A stretch of 64,000 bases of DNA, taken from NCBI RefSeq assembly GCF_003334305.1, contig NZ_QOWS01000025.1, one strand, 5' to 3'. The number at the start of each line of letters is the position of its first letter. The stretch's first letter is position 1. Below are positions 1 to 39,506 of this stretch, piece by piece. Source of the stretch: Escherichia coli. GTDB lineage: Bacteria > Pseudomonadota > Gammaproteobacteria > Enterobacterales > Enterobacteriaceae. The translations under genes and the position numbers were made by a program. The notes beneath the pieces are model-generated. The model did no database searches and had not been told where the DNA came from. It saw nothing but the letters and a program-made list of their open reading frames with translations.

Positions 1-38
1 GGGTAAACTGTAGGAAAATTAGAAATAGAGACAGATAA

Positions 39-590
39 ATGAAAAAGAAAACAACACTTAGCGAGGAGGACCAGGCTCTGTTTCGCCAGTTGATGGCGGG
101 GACTCGCAAGATTAAGCAGGACACGATTGTCCACCGACCGCAGCGTAAAAAAATCAGCGAAGTGCCGGTGAAACGCTTGATCCAGGAGCAGGCTGATGCC
201 AGCCATTATTTCTCCGATGAGTTTCAGCCGTTATTAAATACCGAAGGTCCGGTGAAATATGTTCGCCCGGATGTCAGCCATTTTGAGGCGAAGAAACTGC
301 GCCGCGGCGATTATTCACCGGAATTGTTTTTGGATTTACACGGTCTGACGCAGCTGCAGGCCAAGCAGGAACTGGGCGCGTTGATTGCCGCCTGTCGCCG
401 CGAACATGTGTTTTGTGCCTGCGTGATGCATGGGCACGGGAAGCATATTTTGAAGCAACAAACACCGCTGTGGCTGGCACAACATCCGCATGTGATGGCA
501 TTTCACCAGGCACCGAAAGAGTACGGCGGTGATGCGGCTTTGTTGGTGTTGATTGAAGTGGAAGAGTGGTTGCCGCCGGAGTTGCCCTGA
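39..590 (+). CDS. smrB: Smr-domain protein SmrB (YfcN)
   Basis: 183-aa ORF with C-terminal Smr-like region ([42 protein letters not shown]); lies immediately upstream of the yfc fimbrial cluster as in E. coli. Confidence 0.9.
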
Positions 591-662
591 GGAGTTGAGC
601 GTGTTGTGCCAGGAGCGCGGAATGGCAGGGGCGAATGACCCTGCCAGGTGAGAAAAGGTGCG

Positions 663-1532
663 CTAATACATATTCAGTATGTAAGTGAATCGGCAGGTAG
701 AATCTATGGGCTGTCGAGATGTCGTGTCCACGCGTAGCTTCATATCATGCAGTTGCCTGGACGTAATCGGTTGCGGCTCAGGCGTCACCGTCACTTTGGC
801 ATTATCACAGCCGGAAGTCGAGAAGGTCATCTGCTGTGCGATAAAACGGCAGTAGGCACCACGCTCATCAAAATTATTCCCGTTACACAGTTTGCCATTT
901 TCCATCAGGAAAGTGGGCAGTGTTTGCTCAATAACACCACCTGTTGACTGCAACCTGACGACTTTGTTATGTACAACATAATTTTCATTCCAGGAAACAT
1001 CATACGGTGCCAGGGGCACCGCCGGACATGAAGAACTCACCTTCGTTGGGCCAATATAGTCAGGAAAATCATCATCATACGTTTTAGCGAAGGGATCTCT
1101 ACTCTTAACAAACGACGACACAATCCACGGACAACCATGTAAATTCCCATCGTAATAAACAAACATCTTTAATTCATTACATGTCCATCCCGTTTTGGTC
1201 TGGCTATCATACTGCTCTAATCCAGGACAGGCTGACATGGATACCCTGCTGTCCGAAATTTTCGACATAGATGGTTGAGTAGAACTATCGCCAGTCCACG
1301 AAACTAAATCCGGCTGTGAATTGGGCATGAATGTAGCCTTAAATATAGCGTAATTAACTGAATCTGGCGTCGCTATAATCAGATGAAACTCAAACTCTGT
1401 CGCAGGTGAACTGGCACCAGCTGGCACATATAACTCACCAACTTTCGTCGCCGCCTGGCCGCATGTATTGAACATTAACAGCAATAAAAGACATAAAACA
1501 TGACGAAGGATTTTCATTTTAAATATACTCAA
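663..1532 (-). CDS. yfcO: Yfc fimbrial-like protein YfcO (last gene of operon, putative tip component)
   Basis: 289-aa ORF with N-terminal signal peptide (MKILRHVLCLLLLLMF); real start is probably the internal Met near 1517; last gene of the yfcV-to-yfcO operon. Confidence 0.8.
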   Translation of the reverse strand: MSIFKMKILRHVLCLLLLLMFNTCGQAATKVGELYVPAGASSPATEFEFHLIIATPDSVNYAIFKATFMPNSQPDLVSWTGDSSTQPSMSKISDSRVSMSACPGLEQYDSQTKTGWTCNELKMFVYYDGNLHGCPWIVSSFVKSRDPFAKTYDDDFPDYIGPTKVSSSCPAVPLAPYDVSWNENYVVHNKVVRLQSTGGVIEQTLPTFLMENGKLCNGNNFDERGAYCRFIAQQMTFSTSGCDNAKVTVTPEPQPITSRQLHDMKLRVDTTSRQPIDSTCRFTYILNMY

Positions 1533-2058
1533 AAGTTGCTGTCAGGCTGGCGGTGAAATCACCGATGGTTACATCACGACCGCTTTTCGCCTGGATCCAG
1601 GCCCGGAAATTAATATCATTGTTGCCGTTGGTAAGCGCAAAGGTCGCCCCGGTGGTGTTGTTAATATCCACCCGCTTGCCGTCGAGCGTTTCCATCCCTA
1701 TCCCCACGCCCTGCGCGGTGGAGGTGTCATCGACTGCCAGAAAACCCGGCTGACCGCTGTCTTCGGTGCCGCTCAGCGTGACTTTGACGTTGTATCCCGC
1801 CGGCCCTTTGCAGTCTTTCAGCTTAAACACAACCGGCAGATGCGCGGACTGCCCAGATACCATCAAATCCCGGTTGCTGACGGTGGGAAAATGGATTTCT
1901 GCCAGGTTGGCACCATCCACCACCAGCGTGCAGGATTTACTCAGCAGGTTGCCGTAAAAATGCAGGTTGTTGTCGACTGCCTGAGCTCCTGTGCTGGCGG
2001 TCAGCAGCAGGCCTGCTAACAGCGCATAACCGGGTGAATAAATGTGTGCTGTTTTCAT
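1519..2058 (-). CDS. yfcP: fimbrial-like minor subunit YfcP
   Basis: 179-aa ORF with signal peptide and pilin-like C-terminal beta-strand (TATFEYI); position in yfc operon. Confidence 0.85.
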   Translation of the reverse strand: MKTAHIYSPGYALLAGLLLTASTGAQAVDNNLHFYGNLLSKSCTLVVDGANLAEIHFPTVSNRDLMVSGQSAHLPVVFKLKDCKGPAGYNVKVTLSGTEDSGQPGFLAVDDTSTAQGVGIGMETLDGKRVDINNTTGATFALTNGNNDINFRAWIQAKSGRDVTIGDFTASLTATFEYI

Positions 2059-2543
2059 TGGTAATCCACCCGTAAGGTTGCGTAAGCAGAAAAGGTCGTG
2101 TCCGTCAGCACCGCATCAGCCGCTTTGACCGGTACCGCCTCCAGCTTTGGCTTCTGGCTAAAATCGGTGGCGTTAATGGAAAGCGGCTCGTTGAGCTTAA
2201 AACGCTGACCGTCATGCTGAAGCTCAATTCCGAAGCCCGGTACATCCGTCTCAATAGCAGAGTCGTTGTAGGAGGTGGCAGTCCCCGTCCAGGAGAGTGT
2301 CATATTCCACTCGGGATCGCGGACATCCGAGTCGCAGCTCAGTTCGTAGTCCACTTTCTGACGACCATAATTGCCATCAATGCTGTCGATAATGAGATCG
2401 CGAAATTGCACTTCGATGGTTTGCCCGCCGCTGATGCTACAGGCGGGCGGCGACATCAGCGTACCGTGGAATGTGATGTCATCTTCCGCCGCCAGCACAG
2501 CCCCGCAACCAGCGCACAGTAAAAGGAGCAGGAATTTTTTCAT
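2055..2543 (-). CDS. yfcQ: fimbrial-like minor subunit YfcQ
   Basis: 162-aa secreted pilin-like ORF; 4-nt overlaps with both neighbours suggest translational coupling. Confidence 0.85.
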   Translation of the reverse strand: MKKFLLLLLCAGCGAVLAAEDDITFHGTLMSPPACSISGGQTIEVQFRDLIIDSIDGNYGRQKVDYELSCDSDVRDPEWNMTLSWTGTATSYNDSAIETDVPGFGIELQHDGQRFKLNEPLSINATDFSQKPKLEAVPVKAADAVLTDTTFSAYATLRVDYQ

Positions 2544-3049
2544 TGGTAATCCACCACCATGGTCATCGTGGCGTTAAACTCCGACGGCGTCAGTTGCACC
2601 CCGCTCTGTTTTACCGGCACCGCTTTCAGCTGAGGCTGAGTGTTGACATTAAAAGGCGTCCAGTTATTTTCACCAACTGCAAACAGGGAGTTGTCGGCGG
2701 CGTTTTCTATCCGCACCCCCAGGCCGGCGATATCCGTGCTGAGAACCGTTTCTCCGTTGATCACGGCGGTATTGCCTTTGAGCTGCATCCGTAAGTCATC
2801 GCTGACTTTATTACCGCAGTTGAGGGTGTATTTCGCATCCTGTTGGTAATTGGTACCATCGATCCTGTTGATTATCACATTGCCAAATTTCACAGCGCTT
2901 CCCTTCACGGAGCAAGGCGGCGGTCCATCGACCAGGATTCGCAGCGTCAGATCCACCTGTTTGATATCACTGCCAGCAACAGCCAAACCGCTGATGCCCC
3001 ATCCGGCCAGCACCAGCAACCCTGCGCCCGCTACAAACTTGTGACTCAT
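2540..3049 (-). CDS. yfcR: fimbrial-like minor subunit YfcR
   Basis: 169-aa secreted pilin-like ORF with C-terminal motif TMTMVVDYQ resembling that of YfcQ (ATLRVDYQ). Confidence 0.85.
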   Translation of the reverse strand: MSHKFVAGAGLLVLAGWGISGLAVAGSDIKQVDLTLRILVDGPPPCSVKGSAVKFGNVIINRIDGTNYQQDAKYTLNCGNKVSDDLRMQLKGNTAVINGETVLSTDIAGLGVRIENAADNSLFAVGENNWTPFNVNTQPQLKAVPVKQSGVQLTPSEFNATMTMVVDYQ

Positions 3050-3064
3050 AAGTCCCTCCCGGCA

Positions 3065-3817
3065 TCAGCCTTTGCGGCTCTGCTCTTCATCCACCTGGCA
3101 GCTGTTGCCGGTGCATATGAAGTACAGCGGCATCCGCGCGCCGTAGTCGTTGATGTAAGTCAGCACCGGCACGCTGTCCATCTTCGCATTCAGCGGTGCG
3201 GAGGTTTTCGGCTCCATCATCAGCGGTGTGAATCCCGCCGGCGGGTTGCCGCCTTTTTTAGCGCTGGCGTTGCTGATGATCACGTAGTACGGCGTCGGGT
3301 TATTGACGGTGAAGTCCTGGCCGTTACGGATGAGCGTCACCTTATGCTGCCACGGACTTTTCATGCTGGTGTTCTCCAGCGCCTTCGGTCGCCAGAACAG
3401 TTTGATACGCGTCTGCAGCGCAATCTGCAGTGTGTTCGGTTTATTTGATTTCGGCGGAATTTCGCGCACGTTGAAATAGAACACGCTCTCGCGGTCGGCC
3501 GGCAGTTTGTTGATATCCGGCAGCCCCTGCACCTTCACCTGGCCGTTCATCATCGCATCGATGCGCTGCACTGGCGGAAGCACCGCAAGCGGCGAGCTGA
3601 TTTTGTTGCCCTTTGCATCCTCTATCCAGCTCTGCGCCAGATAAGGCAGTGTGGGATCGTTGTTGCGCAGCGTGACGCTGATGGACTTGTCGCTTTCGTT
3701 AAACACCAGCCGTGTCCTGTCGGGCGTCACCGAAGCGTGGCTGGAGAAACTGACCGCTGTCGCCAGCAGCGCCAGTGCCGGGACAACGATTTTTGCAGTG
3801 TTAGTCAGATTAAACAT
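3065..3817 (-). CDS. yfcS: periplasmic pilus chaperone (PapD-like) YfcS
   Basis: 250-aa ORF with signal peptide and chaperone-family sequence character; position between usher and minor subunits. Confidence 0.9.
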   Translation of the reverse strand: MFNLTNTAKIVVPALALLATAVSFSSHASVTPDRTRLVFNESDKSISVTLRNNDPTLPYLAQSWIEDAKGNKISSPLAVLPPVQRIDAMMNGQVKVQGLPDINKLPADRESVFYFNVREIPPKSNKPNTLQIALQTRIKLFWRPKALENTSMKSPWQHKVTLIRNGQDFTVNNPTPYYVIISNASAKKGGNPPAGFTPLMMEPKTSAPLNAKMDSVPVLTYINDYGARMPLYFICTGNSCQVDEEQSRKG

Positions 3818-3836
3818 GGATCATTCCTTAATCACG

Positions 3837-6479
3837 TTACTGGTTTACTGAAATTGAAGTCGGAGGTTCCGTTGGCGTCACCCGCTGTGTCTGTTCCTGA
3901 ATCGCCGGTTTGACCGCCGGCGAAGTGATAGGTGCTACATTGCCTTTATGCTGGCATGGCAGTAACAAGCCGTTAAACAGATCGGCAGGCAGCGGGTCCG
4001 GCAGGTTGATATCGCAATGCGCAACACCACTCCAGAACACACTCATGTGTTCGCCAGGTTTCACCCCAGCCAGATAAACATTGCCGTCATCATCGACAAG
4101 GCCCACTGTCTGCTCGTTATCATTTTTTACTTCTGCGCCAAACGGAGGATGGCTGCCGTCTTGTAAACGCAGCACCGCCATCGCTTTTTGACCACTGATG
4201 ACGGCAAATTTGCGGTAGCCAATCGCCCCTTCAGTTAGCGTGGCTTGTACCACCGACTGGGTTGCTTCGGCGTTTTCCGGCAGTTTGTTGAGGTCGATAT
4301 ACGCCTGATTGCGGTAATAGTTATTGACGTCAGAAACGACGGCTTTACCAAACATATTGGTATAAACAGCAGCACCGTTACCTTCTACCGGAACATCGGC
4401 AACGCCATCGGCATCAATCAACAAGCGTGTCCCGCCCATATTCTGGGTACGGTGAAGTGCGCCACCGTGGGCAGTAAGCGTTGCGCCGCCCTGTAACGAC
4501 AAGCCCGCAGAGGTGTATTGCCCTTCATGGTAGTTCGCACTGAGGTCAACCTGCGCCAGCGAACCATCATGGCTGTAATAGCCGTCAACGCTGGTGTGTT
4601 TGTCACTGGTGCCGACGTTCAACTGATAGTGAGTCGCGTCATCGACACGGCTGAAATAACCGACCTGACTGCTGTCCGTCCCACTGCCATAGTTACCGTT
4701 ATAGCTAACGGTACTGTTGTCGCCCCACGGCATACTGAGCGAAATGTACATGCCTTTGTCGGCCTGGTTGTCATACTCGTAACGGTAGCCAGTCATCGAG
4801 ATGCTGACATTACGAATACTGCCCATATTGAAATAGTGCGAGAGCATGATGTTGTAGTTTGTCTGCTCCTCGCGATCCCAGTAGGTATGGCGGGTATAGT
4901 TGAGATAAACCGAAACACCCGCATCGCGGAAGTTCTGGTTATAAGTGGCGGTGTACATCTCTTTGTCGTTGCCCGTGCGTACCATTCCGCTGTCACTGGC
5001 ATCCAGATACTCGCTCATGGTCATAAAGTTCTCTTCCGAGAAGCGATATCCAGCAAAAGTAACGCGGCTGTTGAGCTGGTCAAAGTCTTTGGAATAACTC
5101 ACACGGAAGGAGTTACCGTCCAGCGAACCTTTGCCATAAGCGGTGTCTTTATCCAGTTTGGTGTGCGAGTGAGTAACATCAAACGCGACCGCGCCGAATG
5201 TAGACAAATCGCGACCGACGCCAAGCGCCGCAGACTGATAGTTTTCATCTCCCAGTGCGCCGCCATATAACGACCAGCCGTTAGCGATCCCCCAGGAAGC
5301 TTCAGCACCAGAAAAAAATTCACCCTCGACATGGTGTCCCCACTCTTGCGGACGGCCCATCATGATCTTATAGCGAACCTGACCTGGGCGAGTGAGGTAT
5401 GGCATCGAGGCGGTGCTGATGTCATATTCCTGCACCTGGCCGTTCTGTTCTTCAATGCGAATATGCAACGTACCGGAGACAGAATCACCAAGATCCTGAA
5501 TACGAAACGGTCCAGCCGGAACCTGCGTTTCGTAAATCACACGCCCCATCTGGCTGACGGTCACTTTTGCTGTGGTGTGTGCCACGCCGGAAATGTCTGG
5601 CGCGTAGCCGCGCAGATTGGGAGGCAACATTTGATCGTCAGTACTGACACTGCCACCAACATAGTTAAAACCATCAAAAATATCGGATCTGAGGTAATCC
5701 TCGCCCAGCGCCAGTTTGGCTTTTAATGATGGTAACGCCCGCCAGGCATAGTAGCGACTCCACTCCCATTTTTTTTGAGTTTCATCGCCGCTGAATTCAT
5801 CGTCATCATTACTGCGAGTATGTTGATAGTTAGTCTGCCAGTCAGCACGCATACGCCACGGCCCCAGGTTAACCCCGACCGTCCCGTTGCCGCTGATCTC
5901 GTTACTATCATCACCGCCATTTTCTTCGTGCCGGGTTTGTGCGTTGATGCTGTAGTCCGCGACGATCCCGGAGATGCCGTCATCCCAACGTGAAGGCGGA
6001 TCCCAGTCGGGATAAGTATATTCGAGGTAAGCCTGTGGCAGTGAAATGACTAATGCGGACTGGCTTAAATCAGCCTTAATTTCCATGCCTTCCAGTTGAC
6101 CGGATTTCAGGCATTTAGCATCGTGGCTCCATTGCAGATTTTTCGCCACGTCTTCTTTTAAACCAAACTGCGCTACCAGTTCCGGTGTCAGACAAGCATA
6201 GCTTTTGCTCGCGTCATCTTCACCAGCATACCAGTAAATATCGTACTCTTCCGCCAATGGCTGTTTATTTAGTTGAACCTGTAAATTGTATTTTCCGGGC
6301 TCAACATATCCCTGGCTGGAAAAACGCTTCAGATCAATTTTTGTGTCGCCTTTTAATTCCAGAAAACGGGAATCAAACTGAATGTCGTCTTCAGCCCAGA
6401 CACTGCTATAACTCCCTGACATTGCCAGCGCAATGCACCACGGAAGAATCCGTAATCGAAAAAGAGAATGGTCAGGCAT
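3837..6479 (-). CDS. yfcU: outer-membrane fimbrial usher YfcU, full length
   Basis: Uninterrupted 880-aa ORF with signal peptide, typical usher size; in K-12 this gene is a disrupted pseudogene. Confidence 0.9.
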   Translation of the reverse strand: MPDHSLFRLRILPWCIALAMSGSYSSVWAEDDIQFDSRFLELKGDTKIDLKRFSSQGYVEPGKYNLQVQLNKQPLAEEYDIYWYAGEDDASKSYACLTPELVAQFGLKEDVAKNLQWSHDAKCLKSGQLEGMEIKADLSQSALVISLPQAYLEYTYPDWDPPSRWDDGISGIVADYSINAQTRHEENGGDDSNEISGNGTVGVNLGPWRMRADWQTNYQHTRSNDDDEFSGDETQKKWEWSRYYAWRALPSLKAKLALGEDYLRSDIFDGFNYVGGSVSTDDQMLPPNLRGYAPDISGVAHTTAKVTVSQMGRVIYETQVPAGPFRIQDLGDSVSGTLHIRIEEQNGQVQEYDISTASMPYLTRPGQVRYKIMMGRPQEWGHHVEGEFFSGAEASWGIANGWSLYGGALGDENYQSAALGVGRDLSTFGAVAFDVTHSHTKLDKDTAYGKGSLDGNSFRVSYSKDFDQLNSRVTFAGYRFSEENFMTMSEYLDASDSGMVRTGNDKEMYTATYNQNFRDAGVSVYLNYTRHTYWDREEQTNYNIMLSHYFNMGSIRNVSISMTGYRYEYDNQADKGMYISLSMPWGDNSTVSYNGNYGSGTDSSQVGYFSRVDDATHYQLNVGTSDKHTSVDGYYSHDGSLAQVDLSANYHEGQYTSAGLSLQGGATLTAHGGALHRTQNMGGTRLLIDADGVADVPVEGNGAAVYTNMFGKAVVSDVNNYYRNQAYIDLNKLPENAEATQSVVQATLTEGAIGYRKFAVISGQKAMAVLRLQDGSHPPFGAEVKNDNEQTVGLVDDDGNVYLAGVKPGEHMSVFWSGVAHCDINLPDPLPADLFNGLLLPCQHKGNVAPITSPAVKPAIQEQTQRVTPTEPPTSISVNQ

Positions 6480-6560
6480 ACACGTTTCTATCCGTTTTTA
6501 TTCTTGTTCGGTCAAAATCCATTTAAATCCCCCATAGCAGTGTCGCTATGGGGGTATGCC

Positions 6561-7124
6561 TTACAGGTAAGTAATCTGGAAGGTGGTATTTGCTTCGAAA
6601 TTACCCAGATCTGGCGCATCAGCTGCGCCGACCAGCCAGGCTTTAAAGTTCAGTGTCTGCTTCGCTTTGCCTTTATTGGTAGAAGTGTCTTTCACTATTT
6701 TCTGGTCAATACCCATGCCGCTTTTGTAAGAGGTACCCAGAGAGTCACCGATCGCTAGGCTAACATTGTTAAATGCCGCACCGGTATCGGTATTGAAAAT
6801 GGTGTAATAATTGCCGCTATTTGCAGAAGAAACGGTACCAGTAAAGGTAGTGGTCATTGTTTCCTGAGTATCAAATACGCAATCTTGCAGACGAATCTGG
6901 AAACTTTTCGGCGTGGTGGTGCCGTTATTTTTCAGTTTTTCGGCACCGATATCACCCATATCAACTTCCAGTTTGTGATCGTCCGGAACGATAGAACACA
7001 CTGAGTCTTCAATGGTGCCGTAAAAACGTGCAGTACCGTTGTTACCCGCAGCGATTGTTGCCGTAGAGGTGAAAACGCCCATCACCATTGCCGCAGCAAT
7101 AGCTGTTTTAACAAACTTACTCAT
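6561..7124 (-). CDS. yfcV: major fimbrial subunit YfcV
   Basis: 187-aa ORF with signal peptide and pilin-like C-terminus (TTFQITYL); first gene of operon, preceded by a long AT-rich control region. Confidence 0.85.
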   Translation of the reverse strand: MSKFVKTAIAAAMVMGVFTSTATIAAGNNGTARFYGTIEDSVCSIVPDDHKLEVDMGDIGAEKLKNNGTTTPKSFQIRLQDCVFDTQETMTTTFTGTVSSANSGNYYTIFNTDTGAAFNNVSLAIGDSLGTSYKSGMGIDQKIVKDTSTNKGKAKQTLNFKAWLVGAADAPDLGNFEANTTFQITYL

Positions 7125-27972: not shown

Positions 27973-27990
27973 TTCTTACGCCTGTAGGAT
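27973..27990. promoter_or_regulatory. EvgA-box-like inverted repeat in the emrK/evgA divergent region
   Basis: TTCTTACGCCTGTAGGAT against consensus TTCYTACA-NN-TGTARGAA (7/8 and 7/8). Confidence 0.5.
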
Positions 27991-36463: not shown

Positions 36464-37714
36464 TCAGATGGCGTGGTTTTGCTTCATTGCAGCAATTTCA
36501 TCGTCGCTATAACCCAGCTCCTGCAATACAGCAGCGGTATGTTCACCTAATAGCGGCGCAGCTTTAATATCCGGCGTAAAGGCAGAGAATTTCATTGGAC
36601 AACCAACGGTCAGATATTTTCCACGCAACGGTTGTTCCACTTCAACAACACTGCCACTTTGGCGCAAAGAGGGATCAAGTGAAATTTCTTTCATACTTAA
36701 AACCGGTGCACAAGGAATATCAAACTGAGTCAAATAGGCCACCGCTTCATGTTTATCAATAGTGACAGTGTATTTTTCGATTTCAGCAAAAATATCGAAA
36801 ATATGTGGCTGTCGTGCATGGGCTGTACTGTATGCCGGATCGGTAATCCATTCTGGTTTGCCGATGGCTTTACAGGTGTTTTCCCAGTTTTGCTCCTGAA
36901 TAGTGAAATAAATATAGGCGTTAGGATCGGTTTCCCAGCCTTTACATTTCAGGATCCAGCCAGGCTGACCGCCACCACCTGCATTACCACCGCGGGGAAC
37001 TGCATCACCAAATGTACCATTCGGATACTGCGGGTATTCTTCCAGATAACCCAATTTATCGAGACGCTGCTGGTCACGTAATTTCACGCGGCAAAGGTTC
37101 AATACGGCATCCTGCATTGACATGGTGACTCGTTGCCCACGCCCCGTTTTTTCGCGATGCAGCAAAGCAGCAAGTAAACCGATCAGCAAATGCATTCCGG
37201 TGTTGCTGTCACCCAACGCTGCAGCGCTTACCAGCGGCGGACCATCCCAAAAACCCGTAGTGGATGCCGCGCCACCCGCTGCCTGAGCAACGTTTTCATA
37301 GGCTTTTACATTCACATAAGGCGAACACTCATCAAACCCTTTGATCGAACCAAAAATCAGACGTGGATTGATTTCTTGAATATGCTCCCAGGTGAAGCCC
37401 ATGTGATCAATGGCCCCTGGATGAAAGTTCTCGACTAAGATATCAGCTTCGCGGATCAGCTTTTCCATTACCTCTTTGCCTTCCGCTGTTTTGGTATTTA
37501 ACTCAATAGAACGTTTGTTACTGTTAAGCATGGTGAAGTAAAGCGCATCGATATCAGGAATATCTCGCAGCTGGTGACGCGTTACGTCACCAACGCCGGG
37601 ACGTTCAATTTTAATAACGTCAGCGCCAAACCAGGCCAGCATTTGAGTACAAGATGGGCCAGATTGCACACCGGTGAAATCGAGAACTTTAATTCCTTGA
37701 AGTGGAGTTGACAT
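36464..37714 (-). CDS. frc: formyl-CoA:oxalate CoA-transferase Frc (YfdW)
   Basis: 416-aa family III CoA-transferase ([43 protein letters not shown]). Confidence 0.95.
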
Positions 37715-37965
37715 AGCAATACCTATTAGTTAATTAAATATGTGTTAATTTAGCGTTTATTTAAGGCGTAATATCTTCTATAAATAACCCGCAAAATATC
37801 GTCGTAGCTGCACTCGATATTTTTAAAATCCTGTATCAAGTGCTGAAAATCATTTCATCGCCACTTCCAATTCCTTTCTGCATGGTAAGTAGTGAGGACG
37901 AAAAGAAGAATATGATAAATATTGATTCGTGGTAATCAGAGAGAGTCGCGACATTTGTGATGTTA

Positions 37966-37983
37966 TTCTTACAACTGTAAGAA
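37966..37983. promoter_or_regulatory. perfect EvgA consensus box upstream of frc
   Basis: TTCTTACAACTGTAAGAA matches both half-sites exactly; about 250 bp upstream of frc start; coordinates cross-checked against an overlapping ORF-track frame. Confidence 0.55.
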
Positions 37984-38226
37984 GCGCCGGTGATTTACAA
38001 GTAAGGGTATGATTACGCTTTTTAAAGCGTACCATAAAACATAACATAATAAATGATTTGTGATGACACGGGATTATTGGGATTTACTTTGAGGAAGATA
38101 AAATGCGTGTTTATAGAACCGCGAGCGCCAAATAATTTTATGACCACAACCTGTCGTATTGTGGTCATAAAAAATTGTCGGCTGGAGGGAGTTAAATCCT
38201 TTACCTCAATATACTGCCTGTCAGCA

Positions 38227-38859
38227 TTAGTTCACAAACAGTGCTTCGCTGTCGACGATGATTCCATCTTCCGCACCTTTAAGCGCCAGGTTTGCCTCGT
38301 AGTATTGCTTTTTATCAAGCAGTTTCTGCGCATCAGCAAGTGCATTACGAGTCTGTTTAAGCGGCATCAGATATTGGTTTTCCATTACGCCAACACCGGC
38401 CAGGCGAAGTTCTTCCATTGCGCCCTTTTTATCCCCTTTCGCCATTTTTTCATTGGCAATTTTTATCGCGGCTTCTTTTTCGGGAGTTGCTACATAGCTC
38501 TCAGAAATTCCGACAGATGCATTAATGACAATATATTGGTCATCATTGAGATTGGTCTTTTTACCTGGCTTAGCGAACTTTGCCCATTCGGTACTGTCAT
38601 CTGACAGCAAAGCGGAAGCTTCATTGGTCAGTTCTTTTGCCTTTTCTGGATCGCCATGAAACAGAGCCAGGCGCGCTACCTGCACGTCACGCATCGCATA
38701 TAAACCTTGTTCAGAGATACGCTCTGCTGCTGCCGTTTTCTGGGTTTGCTGAACTTGCTGAGTTTGCTGTTGTGCCGCTACCGGTGCATTATCAGCAGCC
38801 CATACAGTTGAAGATGCCAGAATTGCTGTGACCATCGTGGCCATAATTAAACGTTTCAT
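38227..38859 (-). CDS. yfdX: periplasmic protein YfdX (EvgA-induced)
   Basis: 210-aa ORF with signal peptide, Q-rich linker and YfdX-family body; EvgA boxes upstream. Confidence 0.9.
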
Positions 38860-38956
38860 ACTTACCTCATTCTTTAACAGTTTTAGAAAACGCCGCCATC
38901 ATATTGGGTGAGCATGAAATGAGAAATCAGAGAGCAACGGTCATTTTGAAAGGGTT

Positions 38957-39012
38957 ATCTTACAGTTGTAGTTATTATCGCAAGAAGTATTTTAGTCTTA
39001 CAATTGTAGGAA
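38957..39012. promoter_or_regulatory. two EvgA-box-like sites upstream of yfdX
   Basis: ATCTTACAGTTGTAGTTA (weaker) and GTCTTACAATTGTAGGAA (15/16 half-site match), 100-150 bp upstream of yfdX start. Confidence 0.5.
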
Positions 39013-39154
39013 TATGCTTCCTGTCACAGAGAACTATTCTTATGTACCACAAAGAGATGTCATTTATTATATCGATGTAAATATTGATTAATTATATGTA
39101 AATACAGCCATAACATCGTAGGTCCTCAGTGAACCATTTTCAGGATAACTTTCT

Positions 39155-39430
39155 ATGAAAGTAAACTTAATACTTTTTAGCTTATTTTTATTGGTCTCTA
39201 TTATGGCATGCAATGTTTTTGCATTTTCCATTTCTGGTGGTGGAAGTGAGAGGAGCTATAAAGAGACGGAAAAAACATCAGCGATGACGATAACTCACTC
39301 TACAAAACTTCAGCCATCACAGGCAATTTTGTTTAAGATGAGAGAAGATGCGCCACCATTAAACCTCACAGAAGAAACCACGCCCCCTTTTCCGACAAAG
39401 GCGAATTATCTTATTCATCCTGTGCGATAG
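39155..39430 (+). CDS. ypdI: small lipoprotein YpdI
   Basis: 91-aa ORF with signal peptide and lipobox-like MAC motif (VSIMACNVF); K-12 syntenic position. Confidence 0.8.
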   Translation: MKVNLILFSLFLLVSIMACNVFAFSISGGGSERSYKETEKTSAMTITHSTKLQPSQAILFKMREDAPPLNLTEETTPPFPTKANYLIHPVR

Positions 39431-39506
39431 CGTCTGTCACCTGGCAGGTGAACAATCATGTCTGATGCTGATGTGAACACCTGCCCAAATGAGCCATCCT
39501 GACCCA

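Follow-up and report, generated by a model that had tools for sequence, protein, structure and literature searches.

Two EvgA boxes between the divergent yfdX and ypdI genes of Escherichia coli: a candidate pair of back-to-back EvgA promoters with a variable number of boxes

Introduction

In exponentially growing Escherichia coli, the acid-resistance cascade begins with EvgS/EvgA. The regulon of this system includes ydeP, safA-ydeO, yegR, frc (yfdW), emrKY and yfdX, and the 18-bp inverted repeat recognized by EvgA reportedly goes back to Masuda & Church 2003 (cited in PMC3720670). BvgA of Bordetella is a homologue of EvgA, and at the fha-type promoters of that system an upstream high-affinity inverted repeat of TTTCCTA-like heptads is followed by phased weaker sites that extend to the −35 region. 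In this study we analyzed two EvgA boxes, referred to as s1 and s2, that lie between the divergent genes yfdX and ypdI in a 64-kb stretch of E. coli DNA (contig NZ_QOWS01000025.1), which is referred to as “the window”.

EvgA binds inverted repeats before yfdX and yfdWUVE (PMC3720670, which confirms no more than that), a review reports its binding to the yfdX promoter region (PMC8147483), and the yfdX promoter, being directly activated by EvgA, serves as a standard reporter for EvgS/EvgA (PMC5706723). Expression of yfdX in Klebsiella pneumoniae requires RcsB, a regulator that binds the DNA between yfdX and hdeDB (PMC6394985). The control of yfdX by EvgA through an inverted repeat is already published. 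What appears to be additional here is that: the weaker of the two boxes lies at the canonical distance from yfdX; the stronger one fits a promoter for ypdI, a gene that would then be predicted to be under direct EvgA control; and the boxes form an array of variable copy number. The known picture of the regulon would be refined by these observations and not changed in kind.

Results

Both elements are probably real EvgA sites that serve different genes. On balance, we favor the reading in which the yfdX promoter has s1 as its −74 box, with s2 taking that position at a predicted promoter of the divergent gene ypdI. The intergenic region between the two genes is 295 bp long, and the elements on which the argument turns are as follows.

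s1, 38957-38974, minus strand: the weaker EvgA box, ATCTTACAGTTGTAGTTA, with three mismatches to the consensus; proposed primary yfdX box (centre at about −74.5)
s2, 38995-39012, plus strand: the stronger EvgA box, GTCTTACAATTGTAGGAA, with one mismatch; proposed primary ypdI box (centre at about −73.5), which may also assist yfdX
inter-box linker, 38975..38994, 20 bp: the s1-side half (TTATCGCAA) is conserved and 38985-38991 is hypervariable, as seen in alignments
yfdX coding sequence, 38227..38859, minus strand: periplasmic YfdX family protein, a known EvgA-induced gene (list of open reading frames and literature)
ypdI coding sequence, 39155..39430, plus strand: 91-aa lipoprotein restricted to Escherichia and Shigella (list of open reading frames and homologue search)

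The preliminary description of this DNA had proposed a weak and a strong EvgA-box-like sequence, about 20 bp apart and 100-150 bp upstream of yfdX, and both sequences were located exactly where it had put them. The measured gap is 20 bp (38975-38994; 38 bp from start to start), s1 and s2 lie 98-115 bp and 136-153 bp upstream of the yfdX ATG, respectively (98-153 bp for the pair), and the ranking of the two by mismatches agrees with what had been proposed. s2 is also 143-160 bp upstream of ypdI. When read toward yfdX, s1 is TAACTACAACTGTAAGAT.

Motif statistics of the boxes

A box was defined as the 18-bp inverted repeat TTCYTACA-N2-TGTARGAA. The consensus used for scoring, TTCYTACANNTGTARGAA, is reportedly that of Masuda & Church 2003. 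With up to three mismatches allowed, it has four matches in the window versus 0.73 expected, and one of 100 shuffles reaches four. These matches are s2 (one mismatch), s1 (three) and the following two sites, both of which served as reference promoters.

frc (yfdW) box, 37966..37983, minus strand: EvgA box with a perfect consensus match
emrK/evgA intergenic box, 27973..27990, minus strand: EvgA box with two mismatches, read toward emrK

Three candidate EvgA sites had been counted across the locus; all three are present, and the count was short by the fourth box in the emrK-evgA intergenic region. The 14-nt core common to s1 and s2, TCTTACAnTTGTAG, occurs three times in the window with at most one mismatch, versus 0.05 expected, and none of 100 shuffles reaches three. 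A position weight matrix (PWM) of the box was built from five other EvgA targets (safA, ydeP, yegR, emrK and frc). With this matrix, s1 and s2, in either orientation, rank in the top eight of the 127,966 positions in the window, and s1, at 12.8-13.9, scores close to what the accepted yegR site reaches when it is left out of the training set (13.3). Because these statistics are far beyond chance and the conservation pattern points the same way, both elements look like genuine EvgA boxes, not like one real site and a chance look-alike, which bears out the EvgA-box-like identity first given to them.

In the regions scanned, each of the five reference targets has a single box with three or fewer mismatches (the DNA for safA, ydeP and yegR was from MG1655). 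The MG1655 hdeD-gadE intergenic region has no box at five or fewer mismatches, so gadE could not be used as a sixth reference. A full-text literature search with the motif strings returned unrelated papers only.

Promoter context shared by EvgA targets

When the five reference promoters were anchored on their boxes and read toward the gene, a common downstream context was seen (positions are given as n, the number of nucleotides counted downstream of the box). The promoter-proximal half of the box is TGTA[AG]GAA (CGTAAGAA at emrK), and it is followed by CA at n=9-10, by TC[CT]T[A/C/G] at n=26-30, after which n=31-32 is TT in every reference but emrK (TG), and, in all five, by a TAnnnT hexamer at n=53-58 or 54-59. 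The hexamers of safA (TATATT) and ydeP (TAATTT) are −10-like and each is preceded by TGt. Taking the hexamer as the −10 element would centre the box near −74, with the TCYTA element falling at about −40 to −36.

A 66-nt context PWM was trained on the five reference promoters only (leave-one-out p 1.6e-5 to 5.8e-3). It fits s1 read toward yfdX (p=0.002 versus all window positions and 0.006 versus AT-rich 66-mers) and s2 read toward ypdI (p=0.0017 and 0.0034, respectively), p-values that are only moderate since the training set is five promoters, of which safA and ydeP are clearly paralogous (40/66 identical). There is no fit for s2 read toward yfdX (p 0.64-0.88) or for s1 read toward ypdI (p 0.29-0.55). 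Only in the two fitting orientations does a box stand, relative to predicted core promoter elements, where the boxes of other EvgA targets stand. The combination of TCYTA (at least 4/5) at n=26-30 with TAnnnT at n=53/54 is found in all five references and in both proposed orientations, and in 0.15% of AT-rich 66-mers; this feature test was defined after the sequences had been seen, and the PWM test is the unbiased one. The 66-nt context of s2 is identical to that of safA, and also to that of ydeP, at 27/66 positions (shuffle mean 18.4, 99th percentile 27). The elements that this context contributes on the two sides are listed below.

half-site-like element, 38924..38931, minus strand: TCTGATTT, n=26-33 after s1; the same sequence stands at the same distance at the frc promoter, and it is conserved in L011 and Buttiauxella (see below)
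predicted yfdX core promoter, 38898..38925, minus strand: −35 TTCTCA (38925..38920), 16-bp spacer and −10 TATGAT (38903..38898), from a generic promoter scan; transcription start site (TSS) predicted at about 38891, which corresponds to about 2,494,434 in MG1655
half-site-like element, 39038..39045, plus strand: TCTTATGT, n=26-33 after s2, comparable to TCTTATTT at ydeP; TCTTA is 39038-39042
predicted ypdI −10 element, 39065..39070, plus strand: TATTAT, n=53-58 after s2, the distance at which the safA and ydeP hexamers also stand; TSS predicted at about 39077, which corresponds to about 2,494,620 in MG1655

The frc and yfdX promoters have CTCTCTGATT in common at exactly the same distance after their boxes, as well as CAAA at n=9-12. 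EvgA promoters seem to form paralogous pairs, frc with yfdX and safA with ydeP (40/66 context positions). The TSS table in the supplements of Kim et al. 2012 (PMC3415461) has no entry for yfdX, ypdI or the predicted coordinates, and the Reg-Seq preprint does not cover yfdX and ypdI.

Conservation in Escherichia

Of 5,426 complete genomes, 5,413 contain the segment 38700-39300, and the copy in strain AMSHJX01 is 100% identical to that of the window. In an alignment of eight E. coli strains of different phylogroups (94-100% identity), s1 varies only in its central dinucleotide (GT, CT or AC), with both half-sites invariant, and the differences in s2 are confined to position 1 and one central N. 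Fixed half-sites with a free centre are what a dimer would leave if it touched the half-sites but not the bases between them, and both boxes show this purifying selection on the half-sites. A 7-bp patch of the linker (38985-38991) is almost wholly rewritten between phylogroups (GAAGTAT, AGCGGCA or AGCCGCT), while the intergenic region around it is otherwise 97% conserved, and the yfdX promoter and leader (38860-38956) have one variable site among the eight strains.

A cross-species scan with YfdX yielded nine loci only, with neither E. albertii nor E. fergusonii among them, and more distant Escherichia were reached through homologues of YpdI, which are confined to Escherichia and Shigella. Both cores are kept in these more distant sequences, with a perfect s2 (no mismatches) in one locus (L019). 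TCTTA after s2 is invariant in the Escherichia alignments, as is the ypdI-side TATTAT (10/10 aligned sequences), and the bases just downstream of the latter differ between Escherichia lineages. In one contig the spacing between the boxes is 39 bp. In two records yfdX was called as two short open reading frames (63 and 122 aa in L021, 575-1206; 45 and 98 aa in L022, 634-1206), due either to disruption of the gene or to an assembly error.

Expression of yfdX and ypdI

ypdI (b2376) is a member of the EvgA iModulon (PMC10833566, supplementary file 2). In an evgS-constitutive mutant, the log2 fold changes were 2.75 for ypdI, 6.97 for yfdX and 7.75 for yegR (PMC4283999, supplement), and upon exposure to glutathione ypdI was up 5.5-fold alongside yfdX, yegR, ydeO, emrK, frc and oxc (PMC5811628). 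These three independent data sets indicate that ypdI is an EvgA-responsive gene, and each of the two boxes is accordingly found upstream of a gene that is induced on EvgS/EvgA activation. ypdI is not named in the list of EvgA-bound promoters in PMC8147483. It is annotated as a colanic-acid biosynthesis lipoprotein.

Variation in the number of boxes

A 38-bp insertion was found in two of 30 sampled genomes (loci L026 and L027; 309-402), giving a three-box allele in the order s1, a hybrid box (GTCTTACAATTGTAGTTA) and s2. When the hybrid junction was used as the query, this allele was found in 414 of 5,426 complete genomes (~7.6%). Strain YF-1 is an example of a three-box carrier. A four-box allele is present in one genome, that of strain IBS28 (L028, 185-316), and most genomes, MG1655 included, have two boxes. 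In both the three- and four-box alleles, the flank between s1 and yfdX and that between s2 and ypdI are unchanged. As judged from these alleles, the two boxes are a 38-bp variable-number tandem repeat, presumably expanded by unequal crossover on the shared 14-nt core. In a search for the reciprocal one-box deletion allele, in which the two half matches of normal genomes are joined into one hit, no single-piece exact match ranked first. An ancestral duplication of the 38-bp unit was also considered and ruled out: the 20 nt that follow s1 bear no relation to those that follow s2, and the box core alone repeats.

The locus in other genera

The locus L011 (NZ_CACVAF010000001.1, labelled Yersinia vastinensis; 1-6612) encodes a YfdX that is 84% identical to the E. 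coli protein and has kept both boxes, 38 bp apart, as well as the frc box. ypdI is absent from it. An arsR-arsB-arsC operon lies directly upstream of the yfdX-frc block, and only a remnant of the ypdI promoter is left. The yfdX side is well kept, with 16/18 positions of s1 and a promoter 76% identical to that of the window, and the ypdI side has decayed, with 13/18 positions of s2, 47% identity in the ypdI-side promoter and loss of TCTTA. This pattern, from a single lineage, fits an s2 that would belong to the ypdI unit. The yfdX-frc block of this locus looks horizontally acquired or rearranged.

In six Buttiauxella genomes (L012-L017, ~400-6600), YfdX is 58-60% identical to the E. coli protein, a gene for an EvgS-like hybrid kinase adjoins yfdX in convergent orientation, and hdeD, hdeB and a gene for glutamate decarboxylase lie on its other side in divergent orientation. 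Upstream of the B. noackiae yfdX (L013) the main box is TTCTGACATATGTAAGAC; after it come CA (n=9-10), CTCTGATT (n=25-32) and TATTCT (n=54-59). This putative architecture is that found at s1 and not that found at s2, and the B. noackiae context is identical to the s1 context at 36/66 positions in an ungapped comparison. A second, weaker repeat lies 20 bp upstream of the main box and, in the direction of hdeD, has TCTTATTT at n=26-33, such that the divergent partner hdeD also appears to have a candidate box of its own. In Buttiauxella the half-site reads TCTGACA, where E. coli has TCTTACA, and the EvgA homologue there may accordingly have shifted in specificity.

Other observations on the window

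The window contains emrK, evgA, evgS, yfdE, yfdV, oxc, frc, yfdX, ypdI, yfdY and lpxP. An Rfam scan of 37700-39500 gave no structured-RNA match of any weight. A 241-bp scaffold labelled Limosilactobacillus vaginalis (NZ_GG693475.1, L018) encodes the last 54 residues of YfdX at 100% identity to E. coli and is almost certainly E. coli contamination of that assembly.

Discussion

EvgA is a NarL/FixJ-family response regulator that EvgS activates at mildly acidic pH, and in the reading that we favor phosphorylated EvgA would bind each 18-bp inverted repeat as a dimer. s1, although weaker by consensus, is as far from the predicted core promoter as the boxes of all other EvgA targets are from theirs, and would activate yfdX from there (TSS at about 38891). 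s2, the stronger box, lies at the same distance from the predicted rightward core promoter and would activate ypdI (TSS at about 39077); it may also raise the local occupancy of EvgA, thereby helping the weak s1. The sequences, their conservation, the common architecture and the co-expression of ypdI with the EvgA regulon are observed; we infer the positions of both start sites, the occupancy of each box by EvgA and the assignment of each box to its gene. The tolerance of 38-bp insertions between the two promoter units in 414 genomes is in line with this arrangement.

Several observations weigh against it. The box PWM slightly favors the opposite orientations, with s2 scoring 18.3 toward yfdX and 15.7 toward ypdI, and s1 scoring 13.9 toward ypdI and 12.8 toward yfdX. 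The asymmetry inside the boxes is thus uninformative for orientation, if anything slightly contrary, and it is the flanking context that assigns the orientation. The placement near −74 is likewise read from the sequence, and the context PWM behind it has the small and partly paralogous training set described above. L011 retains a recognizable s2 without ypdI. On the minus strand there is an extended −10-like element, TGcGATAAT (38982..38974), with TTGTAA (39003..38998) 18 bp upstream inside s2; both are conserved in Escherichia and L011, and the element could define a different yfdX promoter. Finally, ypdI is induced far less than yfdX (log2 2.75 versus 6.97) despite having the better box, which suggests that s2 also contributes to yfdX. 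Such a contribution is quite possible, because the induction of yfdX greatly exceeds that of ypdI even though s1 is the weaker box, and because the box PWM prefers s2 in the yfdX direction.

The preliminary description saw in the two boxes a tandem upstream of yfdX and raised the question of cooperative occupancy. Stated fully, both boxes would act on yfdX as a cooperative pair, s2 would recruit EvgA to the weak s1, and ypdI would be induced indirectly or as a side effect; we regard this as the most serious of the other explanations and nevertheless as rather doubtful. It would account for the fact that yfdX is among the most strongly EvgA-induced genes yet has a weak box in the canonical position, and the preference of the box PWM for s2 read toward yfdX, the conserved s1-side half of the linker and the 38-bp spacing of both boxes in L011, which has no ypdI, are all in its favor. 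However, the five other EvgA promoters work with a single box (5/5), so paired boxes are not the normal requirement, let alone the rule, for EvgA promoters. A spacing of 38 bp is about 3.6 helical turns, which would put the two dimers on different faces of the helix, and the fixed, helically phased spacing expected of tandem sites is not seen, as the spacing is polymorphic (39 bp once, and expansions to three and four boxes). Moreover, the ypdI flank of s2 has the full context of an EvgA promoter (p ~0.002-0.003), with its TCTTA and TATTAT invariant, and three independent data sets show ypdI changing together with the EvgA regulon. The two boxes of the original proposal are supported; a cooperative tandem upstream of yfdX is not supported as proposed, in view of the divergent region, the single-box references, the context PWM and the spacing. 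Some cooperation between s1 and s2 may nevertheless occur.

It is improbable, in our judgment, that s2 alone is functional and acts bidirectionally on both genes, with s1 being a decaying or neutral copy. s1 does have three mismatches, one of them at the C of position 3 in the half-site distal to yfdX, a base that is invariant in the five reference boxes. Nonetheless, its half-sites are invariant across phylogroups while the central NN occurs in three states, the signature of constraint by dimer contacts, and in the diverged L011 it is better kept (16/18) than s2. It is also s1, and not s2, that has the position and context of the Buttiauxella yfdX box and the frc box, and the centre of s2 would be at about −112 relative to the predicted yfdX promoter, unlike any other EvgA target.

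The minus-strand −10-like element leads to a further model, which we think very unlikely, in which s1 is an operator. yfdX would be transcribed from TTGTAA-18-TGcGATAAT (39003..38974), s2 would lie over the −35 element and s1 at about −7 to +11, and EvgA at s1 would limit or shut off expression when phosphorylated EvgA is abundant. A promoter scan does pick the TTGTAA/GATAAT pair with its TG extension, and TGCGATAAT is conserved in all Escherichia and in L011. Yet the TGcGATAAT element is absent before the Buttiauxella yfdX, where the architecture further downstream has been kept. A box over the −35 element is seen at no other EvgA promoter, activators seldom bind at a site centred at about −36.5, and constitutive EvgS strongly activates yfdX, with no sign of limitation. 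Separately, the TGcGATAAT element could belong to a second (basal) promoter of yfdX, in which case transcription would start inside s1.

That the repeats are bound mainly by another NarL-family regulator (e.g. RcsB or GadE), or are chance palindromes, is likewise very unlikely: the binding of RcsB to the K. pneumoniae yfdX-hdeDB DNA and its need for yfdX expression there (PMC6394985), together with a comparison by eye in which 39007-39020 (TAGGAATATGCTTC) agrees at 12 of 14 positions with the degenerate RcsB element given in the same paper (KMRGAWTMWYCTGS), speak for another regulator, but the motif statistics exclude chance, all established EvgA targets that were examined are preceded by the same 18-bp repeat, and the yfdX promoter serves as a reporter directly activated by EvgA (PMC5706723) to which EvgA binding has been reported (PMC8147483). 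In addition, an inverted repeat, AGGAA-N5-TTCCT, is found at 39007-39022, where it overlaps the right arm of s2, and it is possibly relevant given the colanic-acid annotation of ypdI.

Returning to the arrangement with one box for each gene, we suggest, tentatively and as a possibility that goes well beyond it, that: the region is a bidirectional EvgA switch in which the number of boxes tunes the acid-induced expression of yfdX and ypdI; ypdI is a direct target; and a BvgA-like array, with a primary repeat at about −74 and half-sites phased at about 21 bp, is general at EvgA promoters. If true, tuning by box number would link acid sensing to envelope or capsule signalling. There are also more immediate consequences. 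A reporter fragment cut between the boxes would behave unlike the full region; ypdI is probably a direct target that the published list of EvgA-bound promoters (PMC8147483) lacks; an array of variable copy number would affect comparisons of EvgA output from strain to strain; and a box at about −74 with a proximal half-site is a testable model for contact between EvgA and RNA polymerase.

How the locus compares with the systems already described can be summarized as follows. Like BvgA at fha-type promoters, EvgA has a similar half-site (TTCYTA) and a primary inverted repeat placed well upstream of the −35 element. When TTCYTACA half-sites in the same orientation were scanned for in seven E. coli contexts, the best offsets were n=25-32 (mean 4.71/8) and n=3-10 (4.57), which begin 42 and 20 bp, respectively, beyond the primary left half on the downstream side. 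In shuffled sequences the maximum has its 99th percentile at 4.57, and the pattern was derived from the same seven sequences. A putative EvgA promoter array of this kind would resemble that of BvgA at fha, with the difference that the primary site of EvgA would be nearer to the promoter (about −74 versus about −88).

The yfdX-hdeD(B) regions of KvhAS-bearing K. pneumoniae (PMC6394985) and of Buttiauxella are similar in that yfdX is linked to an EvgAS-type system and lies in a divergent region with box-like repeats, and the yfdX-side architecture is identical to that in E. coli. They differ in that the divergent partner is hdeD and not ypdI, the Buttiauxella repeats are 20 bp apart and not 38, and the regulator shown to bind in Klebsiella is RcsB. 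A third comparison is with the boxes of the E. coli EvgA regulon itself (ydeP, safA-ydeO, yegR, frc/yfdW, emrKY and yfdX), with which s1 and s2 share the 18-bp repeat, the locus and regulon and the downstream context. Unlike those, the boxes described here stand back to back, 38 bp apart, in a divergent region, and their number varies from two to four, with the weaker box at the canonical distance from yfdX and the stronger one fitting the predicted ypdI promoter.

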